A DNA stretch of 64,000 nucleotides, taken from Schmidtea polychroa. Lineage: Eukaryota. The notes beneath the pieces were generated by a model, which was not told the DNA's origin, made no database searches, and saw nothing but the letters and a program-made list of their open reading frames with translations. The stretch lies in assembly GCA_044892525.1 (NCBI GenBank), contig CM097885.1, forward strand, positions 32,738,001 to 32,802,000. The letters run 5' to 3'. This document shows positions 5,403 through 64,000 of this stretch, piece after piece (within the stretch, counting starts at the first letter, position 1; the number at the start of each line of letters is the position of its first letter). The position numbers were made by a program, and so were the translations under genes.

Positions 5403-5804
5403 TAGTGCTTTTTTATGGAAAAAGGTGCCGGAACGTATCTGTACTATCCTTTATATGCAAAAAATGACGCTGAAATTTGCTAACAAATAAAATATATTGA
5501 TTATTTTACAATGTGAATTTACAACGCCGACGACAGGAAACGATTTTAATGATGTAGTATATTAATGGCGTATATTTACAGTAAGCGTGTTTTATATAAT
5601 AGTAATAACACATAGGAAGCACGGAGTTATGAAATACTCACTTTGGCGTACGACTACTACTTTCAATTTGATTGTAATTGACTATTTGAAATTTCAGAAA
5701 TAGAAATATGACAAAAAACCAAAATATGTCAATTTTTTAAAATCATTCAGCGAAAAAAGGTACCGGAACGCCGTTCCGGAGTGTTCCGTCAGAAAAAAGT
5801 ACTA
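5403..5804. mobile_element. hAT-type MITE
   Basis: TIRs TAGTGCTTTTTT / AAAAAAGTACTA; exact 8-bp direct repeat GTTTTACT at 5395-5402 and 5805-5812; subterminal AAAAAGGT(G/A)CCGGAACG at both ends. Confidence 0.85.
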
Positions 5805-6800: not shown

Positions 6801-7539
6801 AAAAATTAAAAATTTTAAAATTTTTCTAAGTCCATTTAACGAATTACTTTATAGAAAATTTTCAAAGTCAAAACACGTTTCAATACTACGTTTGCAAATG
6901 TCTGTTACACATGCATTTGCAAATGTCTTTGTTACTCATGCATTTGCATTGCATATGTCTTTGTATTACACACCTTAAGGATAGAAAAATATTTCTAAGC
7001 GAGATCTAAAGTGAATGTGTGTAAAGGGCAATAAATAAGGGTAAAATCAAAATTTTTTAAGAAAATACATGTAATTTGATTAAAATTTATGAAAACTATA
7101 TATATATATGTTTTATTTTGGGCAGATAATCTATGTGTGTCTGTATATGAAAACATTGATAAGGAGCAATAAATATCAAATCAAATCTCTTATGTTTTAC
7201 ATATAAATATATTAACCAATCAGAATCATAACCAGTATTAGTATAAATAAAACAGAATATTTAAAATTAATGTACAATGTCAAAATCAAATTTTGCAGAA
7301 AACATCTTAAAAGGTTTGGTTAATGAGAATATCGCACAAAGCCTCAGTTTCCTAGTTAAACAAACTGAGAAAATCATTGAGGGAAACCATGTCGACTACC
7401 AAACCATGCTTGATATAGAATGCCTGGAGACGAAGAAATTTTATTTCAATAGGATTTTCGACTGTCTATTCGACGACCAAATGAGTGGACCAGAATAATC
7501 ATAGGTTTTACCTATATGAAGATTATTATAGAAAAAAGT
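6740..7539. repeat. Left arm of ~0.8-kb inverted repeat (partner 10277-11157)
   Basis: Near-identical reverse complement; same peptides appear on opposite strands (MRSKIKNF..., CLETKKFYFNRIF...). Confidence 0.95.
7277..7539 (+). pseudogene. 5' part of Bcl-2-like gene A (frameshifted, truncated copy)
   Basis: Copy of exon 1 of 10018-10540; has CAA at codon 42 but a 1-bp deletion (ATGAGTGG vs ATGAAGTGG) before the BH1-like motif, and ends at the IR boundary. Confidence 0.75.
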
Positions 7540-7654
7540 AATTTCATTTTTTAAATTTAAACTACATAATTATTGTTTATATTGATAATTCAAATGAACT
7601 CCGTTTTAAAATAACTATATATATATATCTGAGTTTTATAATTATTTCATTAAA

Positions 7655-8119
7655 ATGCTTTCAAATATAAATTACAGAGCAAAAGCTGATGTATCAAAAA
7701 TGGTATTTCCAATGGAGAAACCACAATAACTTATCAATAGAAGTAAAAAATATCCCATAATATATTTCAAAACTGGTAAATGTAGAATTATGGGGTGTAA
7801 GGAAATAATCAAAGCTAGTGAATATAATGTTTATGATTTAGAAATACAATCGATGACCGTAACTTCCGATATGGGTTTTTCTTGTAATTTAAATGAATTG
7901 GCTAAATTAATACCATGTGTTTACGAACCAGAATTATTTCCAGCTTTGAGATATATAAAATATAACCCTATGTGTGTAAATATATTCGCTAGTGGTAAGA
8001 TAGTAATTCTTGGAATAAAAAATATTGATTACAAATGTATAGTTGATAATATCATATCTGAAATTAAATCAATAATTGAAGGAAAAGAATTTTTAGATTT
8101 TTTATTATCACTTAATTAA
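7655..8119 (+). pseudogene. Divergent intronless TATA-binding-protein-like gene with one in-frame TAA
   Basis: Frame from ATG 7655 gives both TBP pseudo-repeats (IIYFKTGKCRIMG and VNIFASGKIVILG) plus YEPELFPAL; TAA at codon 25 (7727-7729); listed ORF 7790-8119 is the downstream part. Confidence 0.85.
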
Positions 8120-8241
8120 TTATTTAAAAAATCATGTGATTGCAAATTCGATGCAACTGAAATGCATGATTCTGATTGGTCGAAATCTAATTAGCTGAAG
8201 ATGTTTTGGGTTTAGTTTTCATTTATTAATTATCATTTACC

Positions 8242-8659
8242 ATGTACAATAATCAAAGTTCAGCTATAGCTGCCATGAAAGAACATGAACATAATGGTAA
8301 ATTTAAATTTTTTAATATTAATTGTATTTATCATATTATTATTATTTACAGATGAATATCATGCAATAATACTGGAAAGATTGTATTTTTATTACCCGCA
8401 ATTGTATGATATTCTCAAAGATCGAGATGTTGCAATAATCCCAGATTTAGTTTACAATGAAACCAGAATCTGGATTTTCGATATTATCAATACATTTCTC
8501 TGGGATGTGAAGATTGGAAGAACAATGAAGGAAGTGGAAGCAGAATACCCTTGCATTTTGGGATGTAGCTGTTGCAATTTCAGCTACCAGAGATATGTCG
8601 AATGGTCTTTGGTAAAGACACTTCGTAATTATCATTTTTGTCAAACTTTATCCAAATAA
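8242..8659 (+). CDS. Small spliced gene, unknown Cys-containing protein (exons 8242-8296, 8352-8659)
   Basis: 55-nt GTAAAT...TTACAG phase-1 intron (8297-8351) joins MYNNQSSAIAAMKEHEHN in frame to DEYHAIILERLY...CILGCSCC. Confidence 0.65.
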
Positions 8660-8725
8660 ATTTGTATGTTTAACTATTTGTTGTTTTATTTTTTTTTAGT
8701 AAATAGTAATAGAAATATAAATAAG

Positions 8726-8795
<70 letters not shown>

Positions 8796-8972
8796 TTAGT
8801 TTGAAAGTAATAAAAGCAATAATAATAATATGACACATATAAGATATGACAATGCAACATCAATGCATTTTGAATGTAATTAAAACAAAGACATACTGCA
8901 ATTTGATTGGTTTATAAACAATAGTCATAGGTATAAAAACCCTGTACCATTACAATTCAATCATAATTCACG

Positions 8973-9395
8973 ATGACCAAGAAAATATCAAGCACTGAAA
9001 AACCAAAGGTTGTTGTTGCAGAACTTGTACAACCTGTTCAAATGTTCCACAACTACAAAATGTATTTTTTAAAAGAAGAAATCAATATGAAATTGGTGTC
9101 ACCGATCAAGCTAATTTCTATTCAATTTCAATTCTTATCCGGCACACTTTCAATGATAGATGTTAAATCTATTGATGAGGTTTTCAAACGGTTGGATGCG
9201 AATCTCTCATGTAATCAACATGCATGGTTCAACAACCGATATTCAAGATTTTATGATTCCTTTGATGAAATCAGCTTTAAAGAAAACGAAAATTGGTATA
9301 TAACAATAGCAATCCAGGGATATAAAGTTGATAATAATGATGTGTATTCTCCAATTTGGAAAATTATGTCTGCTAGACTTTCACAGCTATTTTAA
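8973..9395 (+). CDS. 140-aa hypothetical protein, possibly viral OB-fold ssDNA-binding protein
   Basis: Intact ORF with TATA-like TATAAAA upstream and AATAAA at the stop; C-terminal YITIAIQGYKV...YSPIWKIMSARL resembles the terminal beta strands of DUF2738/gp2.5-type SSBs (by eye). Confidence 0.55.
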   Translation: MTKKISSTEKPKVVVAELVQPVQMFHNYKMYFLKEEINMKLVSPIKLISIQFQFLSGTLSMIDVKSIDEVFKRLDANLSCNQHAWFNNRYSRFYDSFDEISFKENENWYITIAIQGYKVDNNDVYSPIWKIMSARLSQLF

Positions 9396-9553
9396 TAAAT
9401 ATTGCTATATTTATTGTTTTTAATAAATGTCTTTGGTCCTATTTGTTTTTCATTTACTTAACCAGGAAATTGCAATATCAATGCAAAATACATGCAAACT
9501 TTTAAAAAGACATTCTATAAACAAACTTACATTATAGTTTTAAAGTGTTAATA

Positions 9554-9975
9554 ATGACGTTAGAAAAAGGTTAATATGGTTAGTTAATGATTGAATTATT
9601 TATTGTTTAGAACATTTAATCAACTTTTTGTTGGCAAAATTAGCAGAAATATCTGTTGTAAAAATGGAGGATATATTATCTATTTCAAATGCATTAAATA
9701 TAGACTGGGTAGCCGAGAGTGAAGATTCAAGATTTGATGAAACTGATGAGGAAATAACAGAACAAATTAATGAAGGAAACACACAAGAAGATGACGAGGA
9801 AATCATTCAAGAAATTGATGAACCTATTGATGAACCTAAGGAGGAATTTACGGATTATATAAGTGAAAATATTAAGTATACCGAACCGCGTGTATATAAC
9901 GATTGTATAGATCATATCGTTGAAAATGTTATGAAATGCGGAGATGATGAATGTGAATGTGTTAATAAATTTTAG
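9554..9975 (+). CDS. Small spliced acidic (D/E-rich) protein (exons 9554-9569, 9611-9975)
   Basis: 41-nt GT...TTTAG phase-1 intron joins MTLEK in frame to EHLINFLLAKLAE; the listed ORF has only a TTG start. Confidence 0.6.
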
Positions 9976-10017
9976 TTTGAGTGTATATTCAAAGTATAAT
10001 ATTTATAAATAACAACA

Positions 10018-10540
10018 TTAACTTTTATTTAAATATTTAAACATTACATATAATACAACAACTCCCAAGGCTAATCGCATATAACTTTTGACTTTTGCGT
10101 TGGCTTGCTCTATTTCTTGTGCGTTCTGGGCAAGTTCGACTAGTGTGTGCCATCCACCATTGGCATCGATCCATGGCGAAAACTTGGATTTGACTATCTA
10201 CAAATTAATATTAATAATAATAATAATAATAATTTACTTCTTGAGACCACAGATAATAATGGTCAACATCGTATAGACTTTTTTCTATAATAATCTTCAT
10301 ATAGGTAAAACCTATGATTATTCTGGTCCACTTCATTTGGTCGTCGAATAGACAGTCGAAAATCCTATTGAAATAAAATTTCTTCGTCTCCAGGCATTCT
10401 ATAACAAGCATGGTTTAGTAGTCGACATGGTTTCCCTCAATGATTTTCTCAGTTTGTTTAACTAGGAAACTGAGGCTTTGTGCGATATTCTCATTAACCA
10501 AACCTTTTAAGATGTTTTCTGCAAAATTTGATTTTGACAT
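10018..10540 (-). pseudogene. Bcl-2-family gene A (exons 10540-10238, 10197-10018; 160 aa; one premature TAA)
   Basis: BH1-like LFDDQMKWTRIIIGFTY, BH2 SPWIDANGGWHTLV, tail anchor MRLALGVVVLYVMFKYL; 40-nt GTAAAT...TTGTAG phase-0 intron; TAA at 10415-10417 is CAA in the left-arm copy. Confidence 0.85.
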
Positions 10541-10703
10541 TGTACAATAATTTTAAATATTCTGTTTTATTTATACTAATACTGGTTATGATTCTGATTG
10601 GTTAATATATTTATATGTAAAACATAAGAGATTTGATTTGATATTTATTGCTCCTTATCAATGTTTTCATATACAGACACACATAGATTATCTGCCCAAA
10701 AAA

Positions 10704-10760
<57 letters not shown>

Positions 10761-11157
10761 TTCATAAATTTTAATCAAATTACATGTATTTTCTTAAAAA
10801 TTTTTGATTTTACCCTTATTTATTGCCCTTTACACACATTCACTTTAGATCTCGCTTAGAAATATTTTTCTATCCTTAAGGTGTGTAATACAAAGACATA
10901 TGCAATACAAATGCATGAGTAACAAAGACATTTGCAAATGCATGTTTAACAAAGACATTTGCAAACGTAGTATTGAAACGTGTTTTGACTTTGAAAATTT
11001 TCTATAAAGTAATTCGTTAAATGGACTTAGAAAAATTTTAAAATTTTTAATTTTTGACCTCAATTTGACCTAAAAATTAGGGATAGGGGGGTTGACCTTA
11101 AAATTTTCTATGACCTTAACATTAGGGGTAGGGGGGTTGACCTTAAAATTTTCTATG
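10277..11157. repeat. Right arm of inverted repeat (partner 6740-7539)
   Basis: Reverse complement of the left arm, ending in TGACCTTAAAA array units. Confidence 0.95.
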
Positions 11158-53578: not shown

Positions 53579-54699
53579 TAGATTATGCTGCCTTATTTCT
53601 GGTTCACGTACTCCCACAATAATTTTATCGGTATACACTTCTTCTGTATACGGTTCCAAAACTATGAGCCACCCGTTCACTAAATTGAACTTTAGTGACA
53701 TCAACCTCCAATACAATTTTAACTATATATCCTTTTAGAATTTCACAAGATTTAAATCGACGAGAATAAAAGGTTAATTTATTTGAGAAAAATTTGTAAT
53801 AATTGGTGGGTTACTGGTGGTTGATTAATTACGATTTTATGCTGTTACCAACGTAACCCAGAATACAACATTGTTTTCCACTTGGTACCCGTTGAGTAAT
53901 CAACGTTGGTACTGTACCAAGGGATTGAGTACTCGCAAAAAGTGAGCGCATCAAGGCACTATAATTGTCGAGTACTCTATGGGTTCACGGACTACCGTTA
54001 GAAGGTTTGTGTCCGATTTCCTCAGGTCCCTTATCAAAATTGTTTTCCCAACCTTACGCACAAACTCTCATTCCTCAGGCAAACATATAATAAAATATAT
54101 CGTGTATTATTTAATACTACCATAATATACAAAACACACTACAAAAATATACAAAACAAAATAAAGGTTCAAATCAGCTTGTTGGTAGGGCTGGTTTGTA
54201 ATGTGGTTCTAATTTAGAAAATTTTCATCTAAGTCATTTGGTATTAATAAAAATGAAGTAGTTATGATTGATATGCCTTTGCCTACTTTAATTGAATTTA
54301 TAAAGAAGTTGTATGTTTGAATTTTCGTTCGGGATTTCCGGGTCAGATTGCATAGTTGCTCATAAACCCTCACCCATATCCTCCGGTGACTTGAATCATG
54401 GTAATATTTTCCTAGGAGGGGGGGTGTTACTAAAAATCACTTTCAAAAAGTTTTGATCCTTCTGATTGGATCAGGGGGTTAACTCTAATTTTAACTTTTT
54501 AGAGAAATCTCTAAATCGATATTGGATTTATTTTTGTAATTAATAATTACTGATGAATAATAACAATATATAATTAGTATTTATAGGTTTAATAATATAT
54601 TCCTCAATGACTGAAGATATATATACAATATCTATAACTAAATTACATGCACTAAGTACAATATTGATAATAATAATTAAGCTATACATAACCAATAAT

Positions 54700-54838
<139 letters not shown>

Positions 54839-57294
54839 GAGCAATACTGCTAATAATGATGATAATGATTAATTGTAAATCTTTATAATTTACTTTTATA
54901 CCTGTTTGAAAATTATATAAGTATTTATAGTTAATATTTAGGGGTATGTCATATACAACTAAATATAATTTATAATTTTATGTTTTACAATTTATACTTT
55001 TATATTTTATACTTTATAATTTTATATTTTATAATTTATGATTCTATATTCTACAATTTATAATTTTATATTTTATAAAATATAATTTTATATTTTATGA
55101 TTTATAATTTTATAGTCGACTTGATATACCTCTTTATAGTTTCCCTTTTATGATCAATACTGTTTTCCAGATTACTTACAGATTTCTTGGTACTATTTGT
55201 GAGTTATAATTTCAGAGTTATAGTGCATCTATAGTCTATATATAACTAGTTCTAAGTTGACTGACTTTTTGTACTAAAATTTATTTACTACCATTACTGA
55301 TCTATAATTTATAATCCGAATTTCTCCATTACTAATTTATATTTTTAGGATCAATATAATTTGTACCTACAATACCATAATGGTTTATAACTTGTAGCCT
55401 TATAATTAACAAAAAAAAATATTACAACTAAGTGCTTATATATTTATAAATATTTTAAGCGGGAATCCGTAATTTAATCTTTTGGATTTAGAATATCTAC
55501 ATTTACATTGAATTAATTCCAAGACCTATCTAGATTAAGTTATACTTATACGTATGCCGAATATCTTTCTCATTTCCATTACTTTATCATAAACTCCTAT
55601 TACAAAAATCTAATTCGGCATATGTCTAAGCATAACTGAAATTACTATTACTGATCAACCAGCTACATTAATGTGATTGCAGAATTGTGTAAGTTTAGGT
55701 ATGAGTTCTACTCAAATTATGACCTTAGTGTAGAGTTGTTGTCCATGATTTTTAATGTTGATTTTTATTGCATAATACGTAAAAGGTCGGGAAGAATTAT
55801 TGCTTTCGTAGCCCCACTGGGACCACTAGGACAAACCTTAATGTTGTATAGTAAGTCAACCATTTACGGCTGACCCTTAATAAATACGAAGAGTCAGACG
55901 GAGGGTTTGCTCGACTTAACTCCATGGCAGGACCATGAAGTGGTTCGACCTCCGAAGGACCCAAACAAAAAGAACCATATAATATGATATCAATATAATA
56001 GCGATAATGCATGTCTGCATGCCATCTTATAAAAGTTTAACTAAATTGGATGCAGGACTGAACAGCGACGCAGGAATACCAGTACGCCGCGGATCACTCG
56101 TACATCACTCGAAAATTTTCAAAAAACAAAATGCAAAACCACTTTAATTTTAACATAAATAAATCATTGATAGATATATAATACAAAAACAAATTTAATC
56201 ATTAGTACTCACTATTTACGTTGAAAAAATCTTGATCAAAATTTGGCATAAAGGGATTAAACTGTGACCGAAACGTGTCGGTATATATACCTATTTTTGT
56301 GTGTGCAAGTACACGTATATGTGTTGATGCATTAAAACATACTCGAATTCTTTTTATTCTAGAATTTTCTATTTTGCGATTTTGATATTTTTAATGGCAA
56401 TTTTTGTGCCATAATTTTTGTTTTTATTTTTAAATTATTTTTCGTTAATTTTACGTCCATGATGGATTTGGAACGGTTCCAGAACATTCCATGTTAATTT
56501 TAATTTTATTTTAACTGATGTTTCATGAATTTCTTTTTAAGATTTTTTATTTTTATTACTAACTTATTTATTTTATTATTCTAGATGGCTTTTGTGATGG
56601 TCATCGCCATTTTTATGGAATGTTCCGGGTTTTTCTGGAATTTTTTACTGTTTTTACCGTCTTTTAAGTTATTCGAGTCTGTTTTTGTAACTCTATGTTT
56701 ATTTGGTTATTTTTGAGTTCGATTTTGCATAACTTCTTGCTTTTGGTATAATTTTATTTAATTTCTGTGTTTATTTTTTGTTATTTTCTCCTTTAATTAC
56801 CATTGTTTATTCGGTGTATTTTTAATATTTAACTATACTTTTTGCTTTTTGCATGTTATGTACCTACACCTTTCAGTCACAATTAGAAGTTTGGGTCTAG
56901 AAATCAGTTCTAGCCCAACATAAAACACTCGGGGGCCCATAAAATTGCGACCCGCAATTTAAATCAGAAGATGAATAAGATTATTTTTCAGAATACTTGC
57001 ACTATATTACAAGTGCCTACATGCAAATTGGGTCCACGAGCTACAGGGTCGTGACCTCAATACCCAATACCTCAAAACTGTCTCTACTATTACACTACAT
57101 TTTACAGATGGGTTGAAAGATGAAGAAAAAGAACGACCGAGGTCGGTCCACATAAAATTAAATTATCATGCTCAGTTTCAAGAATCAATGTTATTAATCA
57201 TAATCAGTCTCAGTCCTTGAAATCACAATTGTTTGATCAGAATGATTTATTGTTTTATATTGTTACGAAATGTTTATACTGTCGTGTTGTCACA

Positions 57295-58287
57295 TTAATA
57301 GAATTCGGTTGTTCGGGATCTCGTCTCGATGACGGCTCTGGTTTCAATGTTTGGGGAAGATTTGAAGTATCTTGGTTGGTTCGTGGTTTGGACTAGCTGT
57401 TCTTCCATTGGGATACGAATACTTCGTGATTGTTCTTTTAGTTTGAGGGTTTTGTTTCTTTCTTTACTGGAATTGGGTTTGAGTGCAATCAGGCTCAGTA
57501 TGGTGATGTTTACCATTAGGCTTGCCGCTAATAGGATTAATATTGTGAGGGGTTCAGACTCTCTTGGTTCTATTACTTTGGGTTTGTTCATAGTTTCTCT
57601 CAATTGGGTTATATCTGCAATTTCCGATTTTTCGGGTTTGTTGAGTTTGTTTTCTTCCGAGGTGACAACTTTCTTTATTTCCTCTAGGGTTTTAATCATC
57701 TTCTCGGAGTTCATCGGGTTTTTGTTTATGGTAGTTAGGATTTCTCTTGTCATTTCTTTCAAGGTTATCGTTACTTCATTTTTATTGTTGGGTTCTTCTT
57801 TGATGATGGAAGTTATTTTTCCTTTCATTTCCTCTAAAGATTTCACTACCATTTCGCAATTGCTTGAACGTCCATTTGCGGCTGTTATTACTTGTTGTTT
57901 TATTTCCTCTAATGTTTTTACCATCATTCTAATTTGGGTTGCGGCTGGATCTGTTTGGGATTCTCTCTTTGATTTCTGGCTTTGACATTGTTTGGCTAAT
58001 GTCGCTATCTGGATTCTGATAACTTTCATTTCTTGTTCCAAGCTTGTTTTTATTGTCTGAGCCATTTGCACTTCCATCGAATTTTCTGTTGTTTGTGGAC
58101 ATTGCGAACATTGCAACTTGATTTGTTCGCATTCCGCATTGGGGTTTTCGCAGATCGATTTAAAGCTACTACATGTGCTATCTTCTCTTCGATATGGGTA
58201 TTCTTTCTGGCATCTGATCATTGATTCCTCAGCTTGCAGGATTCTTAGCATTATCATTATAATCATCACCACAATTAGGCTTCTCAT
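57295..58287 (-). CDS. Type I membrane protein, TNF-receptor-like (signal peptide, one Cys-rich domain, helical repeats, TM, tail with PMEE)
   Basis: N-terminal hydrophobic MRSLIVVMIIMIMLRILQA; six Cys in CQKEYPY...CSSFKSIC...C...CSQC; four ~24-aa KTLEEIK-type repeats; TM LTILILLAASLMVNITILSLIAL. Confidence 0.7.
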   Translation of the reverse strand: MRSLIVVMIIMIMLRILQAEESMIRCQKEYPYRREDSTCSSFKSICENPNAECEQIKLQCSQCPQTTENSMEVQMAQTIKTSLEQEMKVIRIQIATLAKQCQSQKSKRESQTDPAATQIRMMVKTLEEIKQQVITAANGRSSNCEMVVKSLEEMKGKITSIIKEEPNNKNEVTITLKEMTREILTTINKNPMNSEKMIKTLEEIKKVVTSEENKLNKPEKSEIADITQLRETMNKPKVIEPRESEPLTILILLAASLMVNITILSLIALKPNSSKERNKTLKLKEQSRSIRIPMEEQLVQTTNQPRYFKSSPNIETRAVIETRSRTTEFY

Positions 58288-58363
58288 CTTTACATATACA
58301 TATACGTTAGTAATAATTACTTGGCTTTATTTACAATTTATTTACACGGTTATTTTGTCTCAT

Positions 58364-59131
58364 TTATTGGGAGTCACCGACCTCATCCCTTAATTTTACG
58401 GGAGGTTCGGGTGCTCGCGTTTTACTCAATTCGTTCATTCTTATTACTTCGAGTTGCGTTGCTACCAATTGTTTCTTTAATTCTGGTATTTCTTGTAGTT
58501 GCTTCTCTTTACTTTTCCATTTTCTCTGCTTGATGGTCATTGTCGTCTGCAGTGTTTGCATGCTTCGTCGTTTTTGATTTAAAATTCTCTGGTAATTTTC
58601 CTTCAACTTCCATTGTTTTTCTGTTTCCTCTCTTTGTTCCTTGATCTCTTCCTTGAGTTTTACCTTTCTATTCTCGACTTTTTTACTTTCTCGCATTCTC
58701 GTTTTTGCATAAGCATATTGTGCTTCTAACTGTTCGATATAAACTTGGTCGATATTCACAATCTTTTTCAACTTCCTTGTTTCTGATTTCCAATAGTCTT
58801 CGATTACTGCCTGAGCTCTCAACTCTACTATCTCCTGTCTCAGGTTTTTATTTTCCGTCTCTTTTCGTCTCGATTCATTTGTTTCCCTCAAAATTTCCTG
58901 CTTGACAGTGTTTATAAATCGTCTTGATTGAACAACTTGCTGTCTCAATCTCGTAATCTCTACATTTTGATTTGCAATCTTTGTTTTGAACAAATTCTTG
59001 CTGACTCTCCATTTATTACTATAATATTTCATCGGTTCTTGTTTGGTTGGTATCGTATTCTGGCTTTGTTCAGGTTGGTCGTTTGACCTTCTTTCGTTAC
59101 TCGTGGATTCTCTTTCTTTTAAATAATTCAT
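58364..59131 (-). CDS. Coiled-coil protein (255 aa from ATG 59131)
   Basis: Intact E/K/Q/R-rich ORF; first ATG at 59131, just after an AG acceptor. Confidence 0.75.
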   Translation of the reverse strand: MNYLKERESTSNERRSNDQPEQSQNTIPTKQEPMKYYSNKWRVSKNLFKTKIANQNVEITRLRQQVVQSRRFINTVKQEILRETNESRRKETENKNLRQEIVELRAQAVIEDYWKSETRKLKKIVNIDQVYIEQLEAQYAYAKTRMRESKKVENRKVKLKEEIKEQREETEKQWKLKENYQRILNQKRRSMQTLQTTMTIKQRKWKSKEKQLQEIPELKKQLVATQLEVIRMNELSKTRAPEPPVKLRDEVGDSQ

Positions 59132-59223
59132 ATCTACAAAAATATACACATCATATTTCCTTTCGTCTTCTTTTTATTTTGAATTTTTTTTTATTCTTAT
59201 TTACAGTCAACATCTCTCTTCGA

Positions 59224-60819
59224 CTAAATCCATGTTGCGTTAGTTTGTTCGTCATTTTCTTCGAAGCCTTCATCTGTTGCGACTTTGGCAGGCTGTGGCA
59301 CTTGCAACGGGAACGGGTAGAGCGGCATTAATAATATTGGTGGTTGTCTCCTTAACCGATCTACTTCCTCCCGCAATTCCGTTGAGATGTTTATTTCTTC
59401 ATCCAACAAAAACGTTAATCTACTTTCGTTTTCTATCATTTCGTCCAATTCCTCTTCCAATCGTTGGGTCCTTTCAAGCGTTTTCAACTTCTCGATTTCT
59501 GCTCTCAGATTCGCTTCATTTTCTTCGAAGCATCGTTTTATTATCTCGGTTTCTTGTTTGGCTTGTTGAATTGCCTTATCGCACTCCTCTCTACATTTCG
59601 CGTTAAGCTCAAGCTGATGTTTCCAATTCACATCCCTTTGGGTGTACATACCTTTATGTCCGTTCATCTCTTGATTGGCTTCCTCCACTTCTGTTTGTAA
59701 TTGTCGGATCTGCCGATCTTGGTCGGTCAATTGTTTTTCCCATCTCTTTTCCTGGTATTCATACCTTCTTATCTCTCGAGTCTGTTTCTTTATGACTCTC
59801 CGTCTACCGTCGCTGGTCCGCGTCTTGATTCTATGTTCTCTACTTAATCGGCTAATCTCTTCCCTTTGGTTTTCTATCATTTCCCACATTTTAAATTTGT
59901 CTCTTTCCATCAGTTTCATTGGCAATTGTCTTAACTCCTCTTTGGTCTCTTTCCAATTCTTTTTCCATTTTCGGGCTTGATGCTTGAGACACCTTTCGAT
60001 TTCCTCAAATTTCTGTTGTCGTTTTCTCCACTCTACTTCTTCTTCTCGATGTGTAGCCCTTGTTTCGTAAAATTCTTGGTCTGCTTTTCGTAATCTCAGT
60101 TGTTCCTTGCTACTGATTTTCTAATAAAGCACTTGAGTTTGGCTTCCTAGATATTTATACTTCCATTTCTGAGCTTGTGTTTTTATTTGTTTGTTAATTC
60201 GCTCTAGTACATTATCTTTAACGATTGGTTCTTTATGCTGTGTTTTCCTCCCTTGCCCTCTGACTTCGTTTAGGGTCTTTTTGCATCTTTCCCATTTTTC
60301 TTTCATCATTGAGCATTTGCCCTTTACTTCCTCTAGTTCTGCCTTATAGCCTCGTATTTGATATTCGTGACTATTGTTCTGCCTCGTTTGGAGTGTTTCG
60401 TATTTTCGCTTCCATTGTTGCGCTTGTAGTTTTATTCGTTCCGTTTTACGCTGCTCCTCCTCGTATTGCTCCCTTGCTTCTCTAAGTTGTTCTTTTTGCA
60501 TTATTATCTCTCCACATCACCCAACTATCTCCATGATCCGCTGAGTTCGTAAATTCGAGAGCTCTTCCTCCAATTCTTGGTATGTTGAGGTATTTCTCAC
60601 ATCTTCGGTTAATTCCTCTACCTGTTTCATCCACTTCTCTTTTGTTGCTAGCGCTTCCGCCTTCTCCACTTCTAACTCTTGTTGCTTTTTCTCATACATG
60701 GTTTTGTACATTTTTATTTCTCTCTTTACTCTTTCTGCTTCGTAGGCTTGTATGATGGATTTGTACTGTTCGAGTTGTTGCATCTCGGTTTCCACATAGG
60801 TTTGTGATTCTTTATTCAT
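59224..60819 (-). pseudogene. Long coiled-coil protein (~531 codons) broken by two in-frame stops
   Basis: ORFs 60517-60819, 60121-60501 and 59224-59925 share one frame, open except TGA 60517-60519 and TAG 60121-60123; Pro-rich C-terminus. Confidence 0.8.
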
Positions 60820-60901
60820 TGTCTAAATAATTACACTATTACTACTACTATTATTTCATACATTTATTATCTACACTTTATACACGGAGTTTTAATTTTT
60901 G

Positions 60902-62080
60902 TTATTGATCGGCGTAGCGAAATCCTTTGATTCGCTGCGCAATCCTTTGTCTACACATTGGACATTACTTTACTTTTCTACTACACGTGGCACATGCGAT
61001 CAAATGTCCTCATGGCATATGAATAACTTCTACGCTCATCTCCCAACACATAGTACGTTTGATATCTCGCAAGATAGCTGCTTTGACCATTGATTCTTCT
61101 TTTATTTTTGTTTCTGGTTTTTCTCTATACTGGGTTATCGCTCTGATCATATCGTACGTTGTTGTTGGTATATGTACGTTTTTCTGTAGTCTCTCTCTAA
61201 TCATTTTCTTTGCTCTTGTCGTGCCTATTCCGGCTGATTTTAACGCTCTGCACATGTTAGGCTTGTCTACAACTTCGTCAACCTCTTCTTCTGTTACTAG
61301 TACTTCTGGATACTCGGTTTCTTGTTCGTTGTGATATAGGCACCATGCTTGATGTCTAATTTCTAGTATGCCTTCTTCCGGTAATCTCTGTTGGCTTTCG
61401 CATCTTTCACACTTGAATATTTGCTTTTCTGTTAGATAGAACCCTCTTATTGCTAGTTCAGGTCCTCTCGTATCATCTCCGAACGTTTTCATTCTGTTAT
61501 CTGCTATTTGCGTGAGGAATTCACCTTCACAAGTTGGGACATATTCATCAACGATTCTGGTTATCGCGATTGTCATTTTCCCTCCTTTTTCGTCTTCAGT
61601 TTTCAATCTCTCCAAGGCTTCGTATTTTATTTCCGGTTTGTTGTGTACATCAAATCCCATTACGAATGGACAAGTTGGAAATCGTTTACGATGTTCTTCC
61701 TTTGGGTGTTCTCCTTTTTTCCATTCTGCTAATTTCCCATTACAGAAGCGACATGTTACTTGATCAGGTATCTCTGGTTTTCCGGTGAAGAAAAATCCGT
61801 TGAGTGCCAGCGCTCGGCTCTGTTCCTTGGTGAAAATGGTCTGGTGTTCAAATGACAGGTATCTCTGGTTCTCACATCTGAATTGCTCATTACTCCCCTG
61901 CTTCAAATTTCCATGTACTAAACTATAATCATTTCCCATTCTTCGATAATACGCGAAACCACTTGGTTTTGTTTCGCTGACTTCCGCATCTCTCACTCTT
62001 TCTCTAGATGGCGTATCGTCCTCTCCCTCTCTCATTGTGATCGTTTTCTTTCGGATATTCGGTCTTTCTTGATTAATCAT
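60902..62080 (-). pseudogene. Inhibitor-of-apoptosis protein (BIR, degenerate BIR, C-terminal RING with two stops); 356-aa BIR part still open
   Basis: BIR RYLSF...LALNGFFFTG...DQVTCRFCNGKLAEWKKGEHPKEEHRKRFPTCPFV; past TGA 61010 the frame reads GHLIACATCSRKVK*CPMCRQRI, an IAP-type RING. Confidence 0.92.
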
Positions 62081-62222
62081 CTATAATAAATTTCATCATT
62101 TCTTTTTGCATTTTTTCTTTTTCTAGTTTTTATGGTTTTGGTGAGTTACTTTACTTTATACAATAACTTTATAATTACTTTACATCGTTTTTACAAAATA
62201 TTTACAATTTCCCTCCATCCGC

Positions 62223-63646
62223 CTATCGTATTTCTATTGTTAGTCCTTCCTCCGCTAGTTCGATTAGGAAGAATATAGTGTCCTTGTCTATGTAGGAACC
62301 TTCATTGAACTGATATAGCTGTATAAACTCTCCTGCTCCTACCGCGGTATTAACCTCTGTAGTTGGTTTGTTCCATGCTGGACTTAATGCTCGACAGTAT
62401 GTTATGTGTGTCCGTTCTCTTCCTAAGAGAGATATTTATAATTTATGTCGAAATGGCCAGACTATTAGGTCATCGAAGTCTCCTTTACAGATTTGCATAA
62501 ATAAGGACATGTACCGATCTTTAAAATTTCCCTCGCCATTTGGAAACCATCTCAATTTCATCTTGTATCCATGTTTCTTGACGTAGAATGGTTTGCTCAC
62601 TATCGTTGTCTGGGTTCCTTGCTTTGCTCGCTCCATTATTTCTGCTATCCCTTGAATTTTCCACATGTATGGTAATATTGGTAGTTCCTCTGTTGTCAGT
62701 TCCCTTCCAGCCCATTTGGTTTGTAGTTTAGTTACTTCGACTAGTTTGTCGTCTAACTTCAACATTCTTTGTATTACGGCTTCTCTCGTAGTTTCGAAGC
62801 TTTCCTGTGAACTCAGCATTTCTTTTATCATGATTTTATGTGATTTGAGTTCGTCTTTGACGTCTTCGACTGCCCTTGCCGTTAACTCTATTGCTCTCAT
62901 CATCTTTTGCATGTGCTCTAATGTATTCTCTTCCACATGTTTCTTCATTTCTTCTGCTGGTAATTGTACTTTACAATCGAATGTCACCATTGGGCATTTT
63001 ATCGCTTTTCTCGTTCATATCTCCCAATGCTCTTTTAGTCTGACGTTGTTAATTTCTCCACACTCGTTTGGGCATCCCCTGTGTATTCATCGCAAATCCG
63101 TCTTTCTACTGCGTTTCGATGTTCTATTTCGATCTCTCTCCAATTAGCAGTTTCTCCGCAAAATTCACATTTCTCCGTTCGCACTTCGCATTCTTTTTTA
63201 TGTTTGGTTTTCTCTTTTCGTAAAAGCTTTACCGTACATGCTTCGCATTCCAATTCTAAATATTCGCATACGTCTGTATGGGCTCTTAACTCCTTTACTC
63301 GACCTGTCCATTCGCATGACCTTTGAGGACATCTTATTTTCACTTCTCTGATTTCTCGGTTCATTGCTCTATCCAATATCGTACCAGTGGGAACCAACTT
63401 AAATGCTTCTCCACACCCTGGACAAGTTTCTCGCTTTAGCTTGGCTAATCTTATATCACACTCTCGGCACAATCTACAACCGCATCGAGTTTGACTTGCT
63501 CCAATTAATAATCTTCTACATGCTGTATCGGCACATAATAGTCTTTCTTCGAACTCATCCGGCTTGGCTTGATATTTTCTCATCAACTCATAGTTAATCT
63601 TTTGTTCCTCTGCTTCTCTCCGGTTTTCTTCCGCTTTGTTTTGCAT
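62223..63646 (-). pseudogene. TRAF-family protein (RING, TRAF zinc fingers, coiled coil, MATH), intronless; one frameshift and two stops
   Basis: RING C...QTRCGCRLCREC...CPGC; DRAMNREI...CEWTGRVKELRAH; frameshift at the G run ~63078; MATH YMWKI...SKPFY...GYKMKLRWFPNG...SLFMQICKGDFDDLIVWPF, continuing past TAA 62436 to WNKPTTEVN...YIDKDTIFF. Confidence 0.95.
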
Positions 63647-63735
63647 TCTACAATGATAACTTTTTAATCTTGGAATTCTACTTGGTTATAACTCTATTTA
63701 TTTACAAGATTATTTACATTTTACTCCTTTCTCTC

Positions 63736-64000
63736 CTATACATCTACCGTCGAGTCCGCTTCTCCAGTTCCTGGTAGCCCGGTCATCCACTCGACTAAAC
63801 TGGCAATATCGTCATGTTGTCGATTTTCATGCAACCTTCTAATTTCTTCCGCTTGCCATCTGATTTGGCTTATTAACTGATTGTTATTATATTCTAGTTG
63901 CGCGATTATTTGGTGTTGTTCCTCTATTTTTGTAATGTATATTGCATTTCTATTAATACTCTCTATCAACGCCGTTTGATTTCGTACCCAATGTTCTTGA
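63736..64000 (-). CDS. 3' end of a coiled-coil-like ORF entering from beyond the window
   Basis: Frame appears open to the window edge; same strand and spacer style as the cassette. Confidence 0.55.
   Translation of the reverse strand, partial: QEHWVRNQTALIESINRNAIYITKIEEQHQIIAQLEYNNNQLISQIRWQAEEIRRLHENRQHDDIASLVEWMTGLPGTGEADSTVDV

Follow-up and report, generated by a model that had tools for sequence, protein, structure and literature searches.

The described elements closest to the locus reported here are the giant Ty3/Gypsy elements of planarians, Burro1/GYPSM1 and Burro-2 to Burro-4. In the part of the published account that we draw on, these exceed 30 kb and have long LTRs, a high copy number and accessory open reading frames (ORFs); they encode Gag-CCHC, MATH, an env-like fusion protein between gag and pol, PR-RT-RH-IN and ankyrin, and their already published cargo includes MATH_TRAF_C, BIR and Smc-like coiled-coil products (PMC6431247). 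Burro elements have already been suspected, from domain lists alone, of meddling with apoptosis and ubiquitination. Other systems offer partial parallels. The Epstein–Barr virus membrane protein LMP1, a precedent for ligand-independent viral recruitment of TRAF, forms oligomers by way of its transmembrane domains and uses a short motif to bind host TRAF2 (PMC4440769). Flatworms possess trans-splicing of a spliced leader (SL) as well as short-spaced operons (PMC12582326, PMC8629364), and the Caenorhabditis elegans Ty3/Gypsy element Cer1 yields a spliced, SL1-bearing mRNA (PMC3315495).

All of these Burro features recur in the element family of a locus that we analysed in a 64,000-nt stretch of Schmidtea polychroa DNA (the window), in which every feature discussed below lies on the minus strand. 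As the first-pass annotation had described, one end of the window holds six head-to-tail ORFs with short spacers, namely ORF A, TRAF, IAP, coiled-coil 1, coiled-coil 2 and a membrane protein, separated in this order by 89, 142, 82, 92 and 76 nt; a further 147 nt lie between the stop of a polyprotein and ORF A. The cassette is also more GC-rich than the rest of the window (38.2% versus 25.8%), again as described. A Burro element had been named as candidate carrier, and extension past position 64,000 bears this out: the gag/env/pol region of such an element adjoins the window, which itself contains an LTR. Just past the edge we found a fusion protein (PF24664, Pfam E 3e-57), protease, RNase H, integrase and ankyrin; the fusion protein is env-like and sits upstream of the protease, between gag and protease. 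A second copy, colinear with the window copy over 18.6 kb at 93.5% identity, contributes a capsid-like domain (weak, E 0.02), CCHC (E 5e-9), MATH, reverse transcriptase (E 5e-37) and a 5' LTR. The domain order 5' of the cassette is capsid-CCHC-MATH-fusion protein-PR-RT-RH-IN-ankyrin. The carrier is a Burro-like, env-bearing Ty3/Gypsy LTR element of about 32 kb with the Burro/GYPSM1 layout, and the cassette forms its 3' accessory block.

The 3' LTR (53804..56920, about 3.1 kb) reads TG...CA on the minus strand, and its sequence reappears in another copy, where it is the 5' LTR. Many genomic matches end at about 56,920 (query 5520-5524), which sets the right boundary; the left boundary is tentative, a single match beginning at query 2405, or 53,804. 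An untranslated region (56921..57294) with one AATAAA and no clear polypurine tract separates the LTR from the last ORF. The second copy has an internal region of about 25 kb and LTRs of about 3 kb, more than 30 kb in all, and its LTR pair shows 24 mismatches and 95.6% identity over 2,174 columns. The window copy is 5'-truncated, with neither gag nor 5' LTR within the 50 kb searched, and no target-site duplication was recovered from the two copies read, both of which are truncated or interrupted at one end. The element differs from Burro in several respects. The BCL2-like, ubiquitin-like and dUTPase-like domains of the published elements have no Pfam or PDB match here, the published calls having used HHpred. 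Unlike Burro as presented in the portion of the description used here, this element carries a full-length TRAF and an IAP as separate ORFs 3' of pol, in addition to the polyprotein MATH; nor does that portion mention a terminal membrane-protein ORF or a repeated acceptor/3'-end grammar (PMC6431247).

The cassette is multicopy. The genome holds about 300 or more candidate copies, the membrane protein having 346 candidates, of which 150 were scored, and gene order is identical in all ten copies read; objections that the locus is single-copy or its order unconserved fall away. Among the matches listed for the env region elsewhere (n=39), 21 have a cassette gene spaced as in the window (within 250 nt) and 8 a displaced one, and for 10 there is none among the cassette matches listed. 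Selection was estimated from nine related copies, one near-duplicate being left out, with an estimator that ignores transition bias. Variants shared between copies comprised 120 nonsynonymous (N) and 204 synonymous (S) changes, compared with 304 N and 264 S among singletons (Fisher p 2e-6). Shared-variant omega lies between 0.06 and 0.25 for the individual genes, near the 0.13 of the polyprotein end. The two coiled-coil ORFs, neither of which belongs to a family (59224..60819, about 532 codons; 58364..59131, 255 aa), show 25 N / 44 S and 11 N / 20 S shared variants, respectively. All 21 stop variants are singletons. All six ORFs were thus under purifying selection while the element was active. 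Individual copies are nevertheless worn: depending on the gene, 4–8 of 10 copies are open end to end, and the stops noted earlier in TRAF, the IAP RING and one coiled-coil gene of the window copy are present, those of coiled-coil 1 at 60,519 and 60,123. ORF A, coiled-coil-like and 151 aa in full, has its 3' part in the window (63736..64000) and starts at extended coordinate 64,191, 191 nt past the edge.

Two genes of the cassette have clear relatives. The TRAF ORF (62223..63646) is full-length, with a RING-like domain, zinc fingers, coiled coil and MATH (Pfam E 1e-17); it matches TRAF3 structures at E 9e-21 and, with its N-terminal RING/zinc-finger region, TRAF6 at E 2e-10, so that the TRAF assignment stands. 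In the window copy the frame shifts near 63,015-63,055 and is interrupted by a stop at 62,438. Alignment to TRAF3 shows that a serine run and a later serine, which we take to be residues for receptor-peptide binding, are mostly replaced, and the element MATH would retain only part of the receptor-binding surface. Baculovirus-type IAPs have a BIR-BIR-RING architecture, and the IAP ORF (60902..62080) resembles them as a viral-type capture with two BIR-like repeats and a RING; unlike them it has a degenerate second repeat and a retroelement as carrier. Its intact BIR scores E 2e-18 in Pfam and its RING E 4e-12 in another copy, the window copy having two RING stops (61,012 and 60,967). Pfam recognizes a single BIR stretch, the second region being a sub-threshold zf-C3HC with altered His/Cys spacing; the proposed BIR-BIR-RING IAP therefore keeps its identity, one BIR and its RING, and its second BIR is degenerate. 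Against structures, the intact BIR scores better on chains that are presumably XIAP BIR2 (1e-11) than on presumed cIAP BIR1 chains (3e-8 to 8e-8), a weak difference. The genome has 309 BIR candidates; of the 150 best-scored, 122 by hand count are in open frames 387-400 aa long, the length of this IAP.

The terminal ORF (57295..58287) encodes 330 aa that had been read as a single-CRD type I membrane protein. Hydropathy predicts the topology: a hydrophobic, signal-like N-terminus, a transmembrane segment at about residues 247-270 and basic residues after this second segment, followed by a 60-aa tail; a stalk of about 180 residues is modelled as helical. An N-terminal domain of six cysteines (58099..58212; Cys 26/39/46/53/60/63, C-x12-C-x6-C-x6-C-x6-C-x2-C) is present; its identity as a CRD is backed by none of our searches. 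In Pfam and PDB sequence searches it had no TNFR match up to E 10, whereas a 31-aa host exon used as positive control returned 19 matches, all TNFR-family or TNFR-like, and the domain has no similarity to the CRD of that exon. Element copies were not among the matches listed in genome scans with TNFR_c6 and TACI-CRD2. Low-depth AlphaFold models are helical (pLDDT 69 and 65), with two helices predicted to span Cys39-Cys60 and no N-terminal beta-hairpin, and fold searches gave no meaningful match. Relatives of the whole protein were absent from 1,690 candidates and from 1.84 billion representatives, and there was no usable Atlas match; because TRAF as query in such protein collections also drew blanks (one search with too strict a cut-off), these blanks are no sign of novelty, and the collections say little on animal proteins. 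On these sequence and model comparisons the TNF-receptor nature of the protein is unsupported. It is an orphan surface protein whose Cys domain and tail are conserved, and it may recruit a TRAF.

The junctions of the cassette follow a repeated grammar. The spacer from ORF A to TRAF (63647..63735) holds TGTA, AATAAA and a TAG 1 nt before the ATG; that from TRAF to IAP (62081..62222) has TGTA repeats and a TAG directly before the ATG; that from IAP to coiled-coil 1 (60820..60901) has TGTA, AATAAA and a TAG 3 nt before the ATG; that between the coiled-coil genes (59132..59223) has AATAAA, a T-rich tract and a TAG 2 nt before the ATG; and that from coiled-coil 2 to the membrane protein (58288..58363) has TGTA and AATAAA elements and an AG directly before the ATG. 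An AG 0-3 nt before the ATG occurs in six of six spacers and a YAG in five of six, counts reached in 20 and 2 of 20,000 shuffles, respectively, in a test designed after the pattern had been seen; a comparable YAG precedes 12.5% of the element's 455 other ATGs. The AG is retained in 10/10 copies, and a 5' RING ORF of another copy likewise has TAG directly before its start. TGTA is in excess (22 observed, 10 expected; 0 of 3,000 dinucleotide shuffles), AATAAA is not (7 observed, 5.4 expected; 898 of 3,000 shuffles), polypyrimidine tracts are modest, with a T fraction of 0.40-0.67 over the final 15 nt, and the splice donor GT[AG]AG is absent from the spacers. Like flatworm SL-resolved operons, the genes lie on one strand within the 300-nt spacing limit, with candidate acceptors before the downstream genes (PMC12582326). 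Cer1, likewise a Ty3/Gypsy element, employs splicing and SL addition and has one spliced product; the present element differs in having six consecutive ORFs, each with a candidate acceptor. Assembled contigs from three presumed-RNA runs and one run of unclassified kind covered 30, 28, 26 and 30 of 30 bins. Several contigs cross spacers unbroken, and none of the 20 loose ends listed, with 746 more beyond these, falls at an acceptor; since starts are not visible in contigs and their RNA origin is presumed, this counts neither for nor against use of the acceptors.

The AG and TGTA pattern suggests poly(A)/splice-acceptor junctions, and hence spliced or SL-trans-spliced mRNAs of an operon-like block. 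Judged from sequence, use of the candidate acceptors before the cassette ATGs is likely; joining of the host spliced leader there falls somewhat short of an even chance, and cis-splicing of a common viral leader is on the unlikely side. We consider it probable, overall, that a Burro-like cassette is expressed through separately processed mRNAs and serves as a host-manipulation kit. The cassette is copied together with the element, whose long transcript would probably be resolved into a separate mRNA for each gene: a spacer would provide the gene upstream of it with a 3'-end signal and, immediately ahead of the following ATG, offer a splice acceptor. Either of two leaders could be attached there, the host spliced leader, in the manner of flatworm operons, or a common viral leader through cis-splicing. 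Going by what is known of their families, the products would most likely keep the carrier cell alive and damp stress and innate signalling, the IAP by acting on caspases or IAP antagonists, and TRAF and the polyprotein MATH by acting on host TRAF-TAK1-p38/JNK or TBK1 signalling. In planarians, traf2-1 and xiap have a modulating influence on degeneration that depends on TAK1/p38 (PMC4993586). The first-pass annotation had placed NF-kB signalling downstream; this output is doubtful in planarians, and in one planarian clear NF-kB homologues are reported as not identified (PMC13563047). Our genome scans for TNF and for the Rel domain found no match, but their controls gave none either.

Other readings concern both expression and function. 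The genes could be expressed unspliced, whether the spacers contain internal promoters or translation proceeds by termination-reinitiation, with the AG as mere start-codon context. Short, A-rich spacers and the unremarkable frequency of AATAAA suit this; the YAG adjacency, the TGTA excess and their retention across copies do not, and five reinitiation steps in series would presumably be inefficient. We consider this reading rather unlikely. A view of the ORFs as neutral passengers, or as host retrocopies in decay, that do nothing for the element could draw on the three broken genes of the window copy and the partly closed frames elsewhere; it is very improbable and largely refuted by the selection analysis, given constraint close to that of the polyprotein end, no shared stop and the many full-length IAP frames.

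The membrane protein invites two further alternatives to the host-manipulation kit. TNF receptors recruit TRAF2 through (P/S/A/T)x(Q/E)E, and TRAF2 recruits cIAPs. The tail contains PMEE (57400..57411, residues 293-296), which fits this major TRAF2-binding pattern and is unvarying in 7/7 aligned copies; the motif noted earlier is there, but not beyond chance alone, since its type appears in 32% of shuffled tails. The protein might be a divergent single-CRD TNFR relative or mimic whose stalk oligomerises without ligand and whose tail binds the element's own TRAF, which in turn recruits the IAP, forming an LMP1-like survival signalosome. With Grindelwald, BCMA, TACI and Fn14 it shares a predicted type I topology, one small N-terminal Cys-rich domain and a TRAF-type tail motif, and its Cys spacing may be in partial register with that of TACI/BCMA. 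Within the ORF, conservation is strongest in the Cys domain and the tail (shared omega 0.05 from 1 N / 4 S and 0.09 from 1 N / 3 S, against 0.25 for the stalk; tiny counts), and TRAF and IAP share its block. Single-CRD receptors such as Grindelwald resemble other TNFRs very poorly in sequence and end in a helix-loop-helix module (PMC8024323), to which the two modelled helices may be compared. It departs from these receptors in its lack of any sequence or fold match, its 180-residue helical stalk and its x6-x6-x6 spacing, against the C2 consensus x3-x11-x3 (PMC8024323). The missing hairpin in the models, the replaced MATH serines and the weak preference of the BIR for XIAP BIR2 also count against the receptor module, which we regard as doubtful; with LMP1, a shared mode is possible and no homology is claimed, and this element encodes its own TRAF. 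Alternatively, the membrane and coiled-coil proteins could be particle or cell-surface accessories, for budding, cell-to-cell spread or superinfection exclusion, unrelated to TRAF and IAP and placed beside them simply because the region from pol to LTR holds all cargo. The element's fusion glycoprotein makes such accessories plausible, and a membrane protein without cellular relative and with a TRAF motif at chance level agrees with them; the unvarying tail suggests a cytoplasmic partner, however, and no viral structural match was found. We hold this to be a minority possibility, if a tangible one.

The earlier proposal of an operon-like receptor, adaptor and E3 unit in a mobile carrier survives in its carrier, TRAF and IAP, and the block has a fixed order and was kept by selection; the receptor part has no TNFR match. 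Whereas Burro's suspected role came from domain lists, here whole TRAF and IAP genes, with four orphan genes, form a fixed block under purifying selection. The junction grammar is new here and predicts the start sites of subgenomic mRNAs; if the operon model is true, an animal retroelement would have an operon-like way of expressing its genes. There is also a warning for genome annotation: many 'TRAF' and 'IAP' matches in such genomes are element cargo, as the best-scored BIR matches illustrate. The most far-reaching version, a six-gene operon cut by the host SL machinery and encoding a complete ligand-independent receptor-TRAF-IAP unit with a new Cys-rich receptor mimic, seems to us quite improbable. 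Were it true, cell-death and stress signalling in the stem cells of planarians could be rewired by hundreds of copies, which could also explain part of the reported planarian TRAF expansion.

Six minus-strand open reading frames (ORFs), designated ORF A, TRAF, IAP, coiled-coil ORF 1 (CC1), coiled-coil ORF 2 (CC2) and membrane ORF, occupy positions 57,295–64,000 of the window without overlap. They are separated by spacers of 89, 142, 82, 92 and 76 nt, and the GC content of this cassette region is 38.2%, compared with 25.8% for the remainder of the window, bearing out the head-to-tail, GC-richer arrangement described in the first-pass annotation. Pfam and PDB searches also agree with the TRAF assignment, matching RING-like, zinc-finger and MATH regions. 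For the IAP, originally read as BIR-BIR-RING, the same searches identified one BIR and a RING, but the second repeat is only BIR-like, being degenerate, and obtained no BIR score in Pfam. The interruptions reported for the TRAF, the IAP RING and one coiled-coil gene could be located in the window's copy: the TRAF carries a frameshift near 63,015–63,055 and a stop at 62,438, the IAP has stops at 61,012 and 60,967, and CC1 has stops at 60,519 and 60,123.

The cassette belongs to a giant LTR element. Within the 10 kb that follow the window, on the same strand, we found a Monjiviricetes-type fusion protein (E=3e-57), protease, RNase H, integrase and ankyrin repeats, as anticipated by the proposal of a Burro-type Ty3/Gypsy carrier, and the long polyprotein frame stops 147 nt ahead of ORF A. 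The other end of the element lies inside the window as a minus-strand 3′ LTR running from 56,920 (TG) to ∼53,804 (CA). The window's copy breaks off ∼10.4 kb past the window, and neither gag nor a second LTR was found within 50 kb. A second copy elsewhere in the genome, colinear across 18.6 kb at 93.5% identity, further supplies RT, MATH and the gag-type domains (CCHC and a weak Ty3-capsid match), and its 5′ LTR matches window positions 54,371–56,920. The LTR pair of this copy differs by 24 mismatches and 5 gaps over 2,174 columns, and the element totals ∼32 kb. Its layout is that given for Burro/GYPSM1 in section 7 of PMC6431247, which points to a planarian host. A 22-nt tandem repeat (seven copies) and an AAT microsatellite within the LTR (54,942–55,139) differ between copies. 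The element carries two MATH domains, since the polyprotein contains one (L016:9312–9701, minus strand, in a further stretch of the assembly) with 44% identity over 72 aa to that of the cassette TRAF. Upstream of gag in the second copy is a short IAP-type RING ORF (L017:5379–5858, minus strand), whose start codon directly follows a TAG and which shares 38% identity across 60 aa with the RING end of the cassette IAP.

Window positions 11,149–45,516 hold near-identical units at ∼9.05-kb spacing, plus one inverted copy, containing an intronless FAF1/UBX-like ORF in four copies (11,625, 20,676 and 29,714 on the plus strand; 33,323 on the minus strand) and Polinton-like fragments of protein-primed DNA polymerase B. 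Long inverted repeats of 373 nt and 207 nt (99%) flank a block at 6,903–10,951, in which one of several short ORFs contains a TBP-like domain (7,730–8,119, E=1.5e-15). Just past the giant element's truncation point is a small Ty3/Gypsy element (L012:2417–6996) with 117-nt LTRs that are 99% alike. Further stretches of the assembly contain a 648-aa ORF that we take to resemble a DNA-transposon transposase (L013:2746–4689, minus strand) and a run of ORFs presumably resembling Polinton genes (L014–L015).

The cassette is multicopy and its gene order is conserved. The 6.8-kb block has at least 31 matches besides itself at 91–95% identity (23 of 618 first-look candidates scored), and 150 of 346 genome candidates were scored for the membrane gene and 150 of 309 for the BIR, all of these counts being lower bounds. 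The same six junctions occur in the same order in all ten copies read. Across 39 other env-region matches, a cassette gene lies at the window's spacing in 21 and is displaced in 8; in 10 there was none among the matches listed. By hand count, 122 of the 150 best-scored BIR matches are open frames of 387–400 aa, the length of the element's IAP.

The cassette ORFs show purifying selection. In nine copies, one of two near-identical copies having been left out, variants common to at least two copies comprise 120 non-synonymous and 204 synonymous changes, against 304 and 264 among singletons (Fisher P=2e-6). Shared ω, estimated without transition-bias correction and with few lineages behind it, is 0.06 for ORF A, 0.13 for TRAF, 0.14 for IAP, 0.13 for both CC1 and CC2 and 0.25 for the membrane ORF, compared with 0.13 for the end of the polyprotein. 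None of the 21 stop variants in the cassette ORFs is shared between copies, and 4 to 8 of 10 copies, depending on the gene, are open end to end. This constraint on shared variants, together with the singleton stops, indicates that the six ORFs were useful to the replicating element and that the breaks postdate insertion. Within the membrane ORF, the Cys domain (1 non-synonymous/4 synonymous shared variants) and tail (1/3) look more constrained than the stalk (20/20), on small counts.

Each of the six start codons lies 0–3 nt after an AG (five TAG, one AAG). All ten copies preserve this AG, with one TAG as CAG. In shuffled spacers, 6/6 AG arose in 20 of 20,000 trials and 5/6 YAG in 2 of 20,000, in a test devised only after the pattern had been noticed; YAG occupies such a position at only 12.5% of the element's 455 sense ATGs. 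TGTA, a mark of 3′-end formation, occurs 22 times in the spacers where 10 would be expected, a count that none of 3,000 dinucleotide shuffles reached, and AATAAA is not enriched there (7 observed, 5.4 expected). The simplest reading of these motifs is that every spacer would comprise a 3′-end signal followed by a splice acceptor. SL trans-splicing is present in flatworms including planarians, with candidate operons defined by spacing of ≤300 nt (PMC12582326, PMC8629364), and the C. elegans element Cer1 yields a spliced mRNA bearing SL1 (PMC3315495). The same acceptors would equally serve cis-splicing from a common 5′ leader, which would leave identical sequence signs. Processing of the element's long transcript into single mRNAs at the spacers is likely.

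The membrane ORF has a hydrophobic N-terminus, cysteines at 26, 39, 46, 53, 60 and 63, a predicted transmembrane segment at ∼247–270 and then a 60-residue tail. Its proposed identity as a single-CRD TNFR-like protein is compatible with the six cysteines and the predicted topology, but the Cys domain had no TNFR match in Pfam (E up to 10) or in the PDB, by single sequence or by profile, and the element copies were not among the matches listed when the genome was scanned for TNFR_c6 and TACI-CRD2. As a control, a 31-residue probable host exon that the TNFR_c6 scan had picked up (L019:1299–1391, minus strand), with a classical TNFR cysteine-rich repeat, matched 19 PDB sequences, every one of them TNFR-family or TNFR-like (best match TNFR2, E=2.5e-4); the element's Cys domain does not resemble it. 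True single-CRD receptors such as Grindelwald can elude sequence searches (PMC8024323). The element's x6-x6-x6 spacing is unlike the x3-x11-x3 of the Grindelwald C2 module, which a β-hairpin precedes (PMC8024323), and two low-depth AlphaFold models tentatively predict an all-helical membrane protein with no such hairpin. We consider TNFR ancestry unlikely. The tail's PMEE, put forward as a TRAF2 motif, is present without change in all 7 aligned copies, but a PMEE-type pattern also appears in 32% of shuffled tails (7.6% for the stricter Px[QE]E). When the element's MATH is aligned to TRAF3, the arginine is kept and most serine positions are replaced, at sites that we take to grip receptor peptides. 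The intact BIR scored higher against PDB chains that are presumably XIAP BIR2 than against those of cIAP BIR1, a weak hint that it may bind caspases or antagonists over TRAF. That the membrane protein recruits a TRAF is conceivable but doubtful, and descent from a TNF receptor, or a three-part module linked through PMEE, for which EBV LMP1 offers a comparison (PMC4440769), is improbable. As to the suggested NF-κB output, a planarian study did not identify clear NF-κB homologues (PMC13563047), whereas planarian traf2-1 and xiap work in a TAK1/p38 pathway (PMC4993586).

Neither the element class nor its cargo of TRAF and BIR domains is new: MATH_TRAF_C, BIR, Smc, ankyrin, BCL2-like and env motifs are listed for Burro elements, and their interference with apoptosis has been proposed (PMC6431247). 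In literature surveyed by titles and abstracts we found neither a membrane-protein ORF nor accessory ORFs linked to acceptors described for Burro elements, although the original descriptions, in figures or supplements, may already show these ORFs, and the portions of PMC11410931, PMC13238120 and PMC7958881 consulted contain nothing on this cassette. The cassette TRAF and IAP, identified by their domain matches, would probably have an anti-death and signalling-damping role. BURRO1 RNA is expressed in a planarian and raised upon loss of a PIWI protein (PMC8532177), so knockdown tests are feasible. A TRAF/MATH expansion has been reported for a planarian (PMC6109357). Cargo of this element may lead to overestimates of host IAP and TRAF numbers in genomes like this one.
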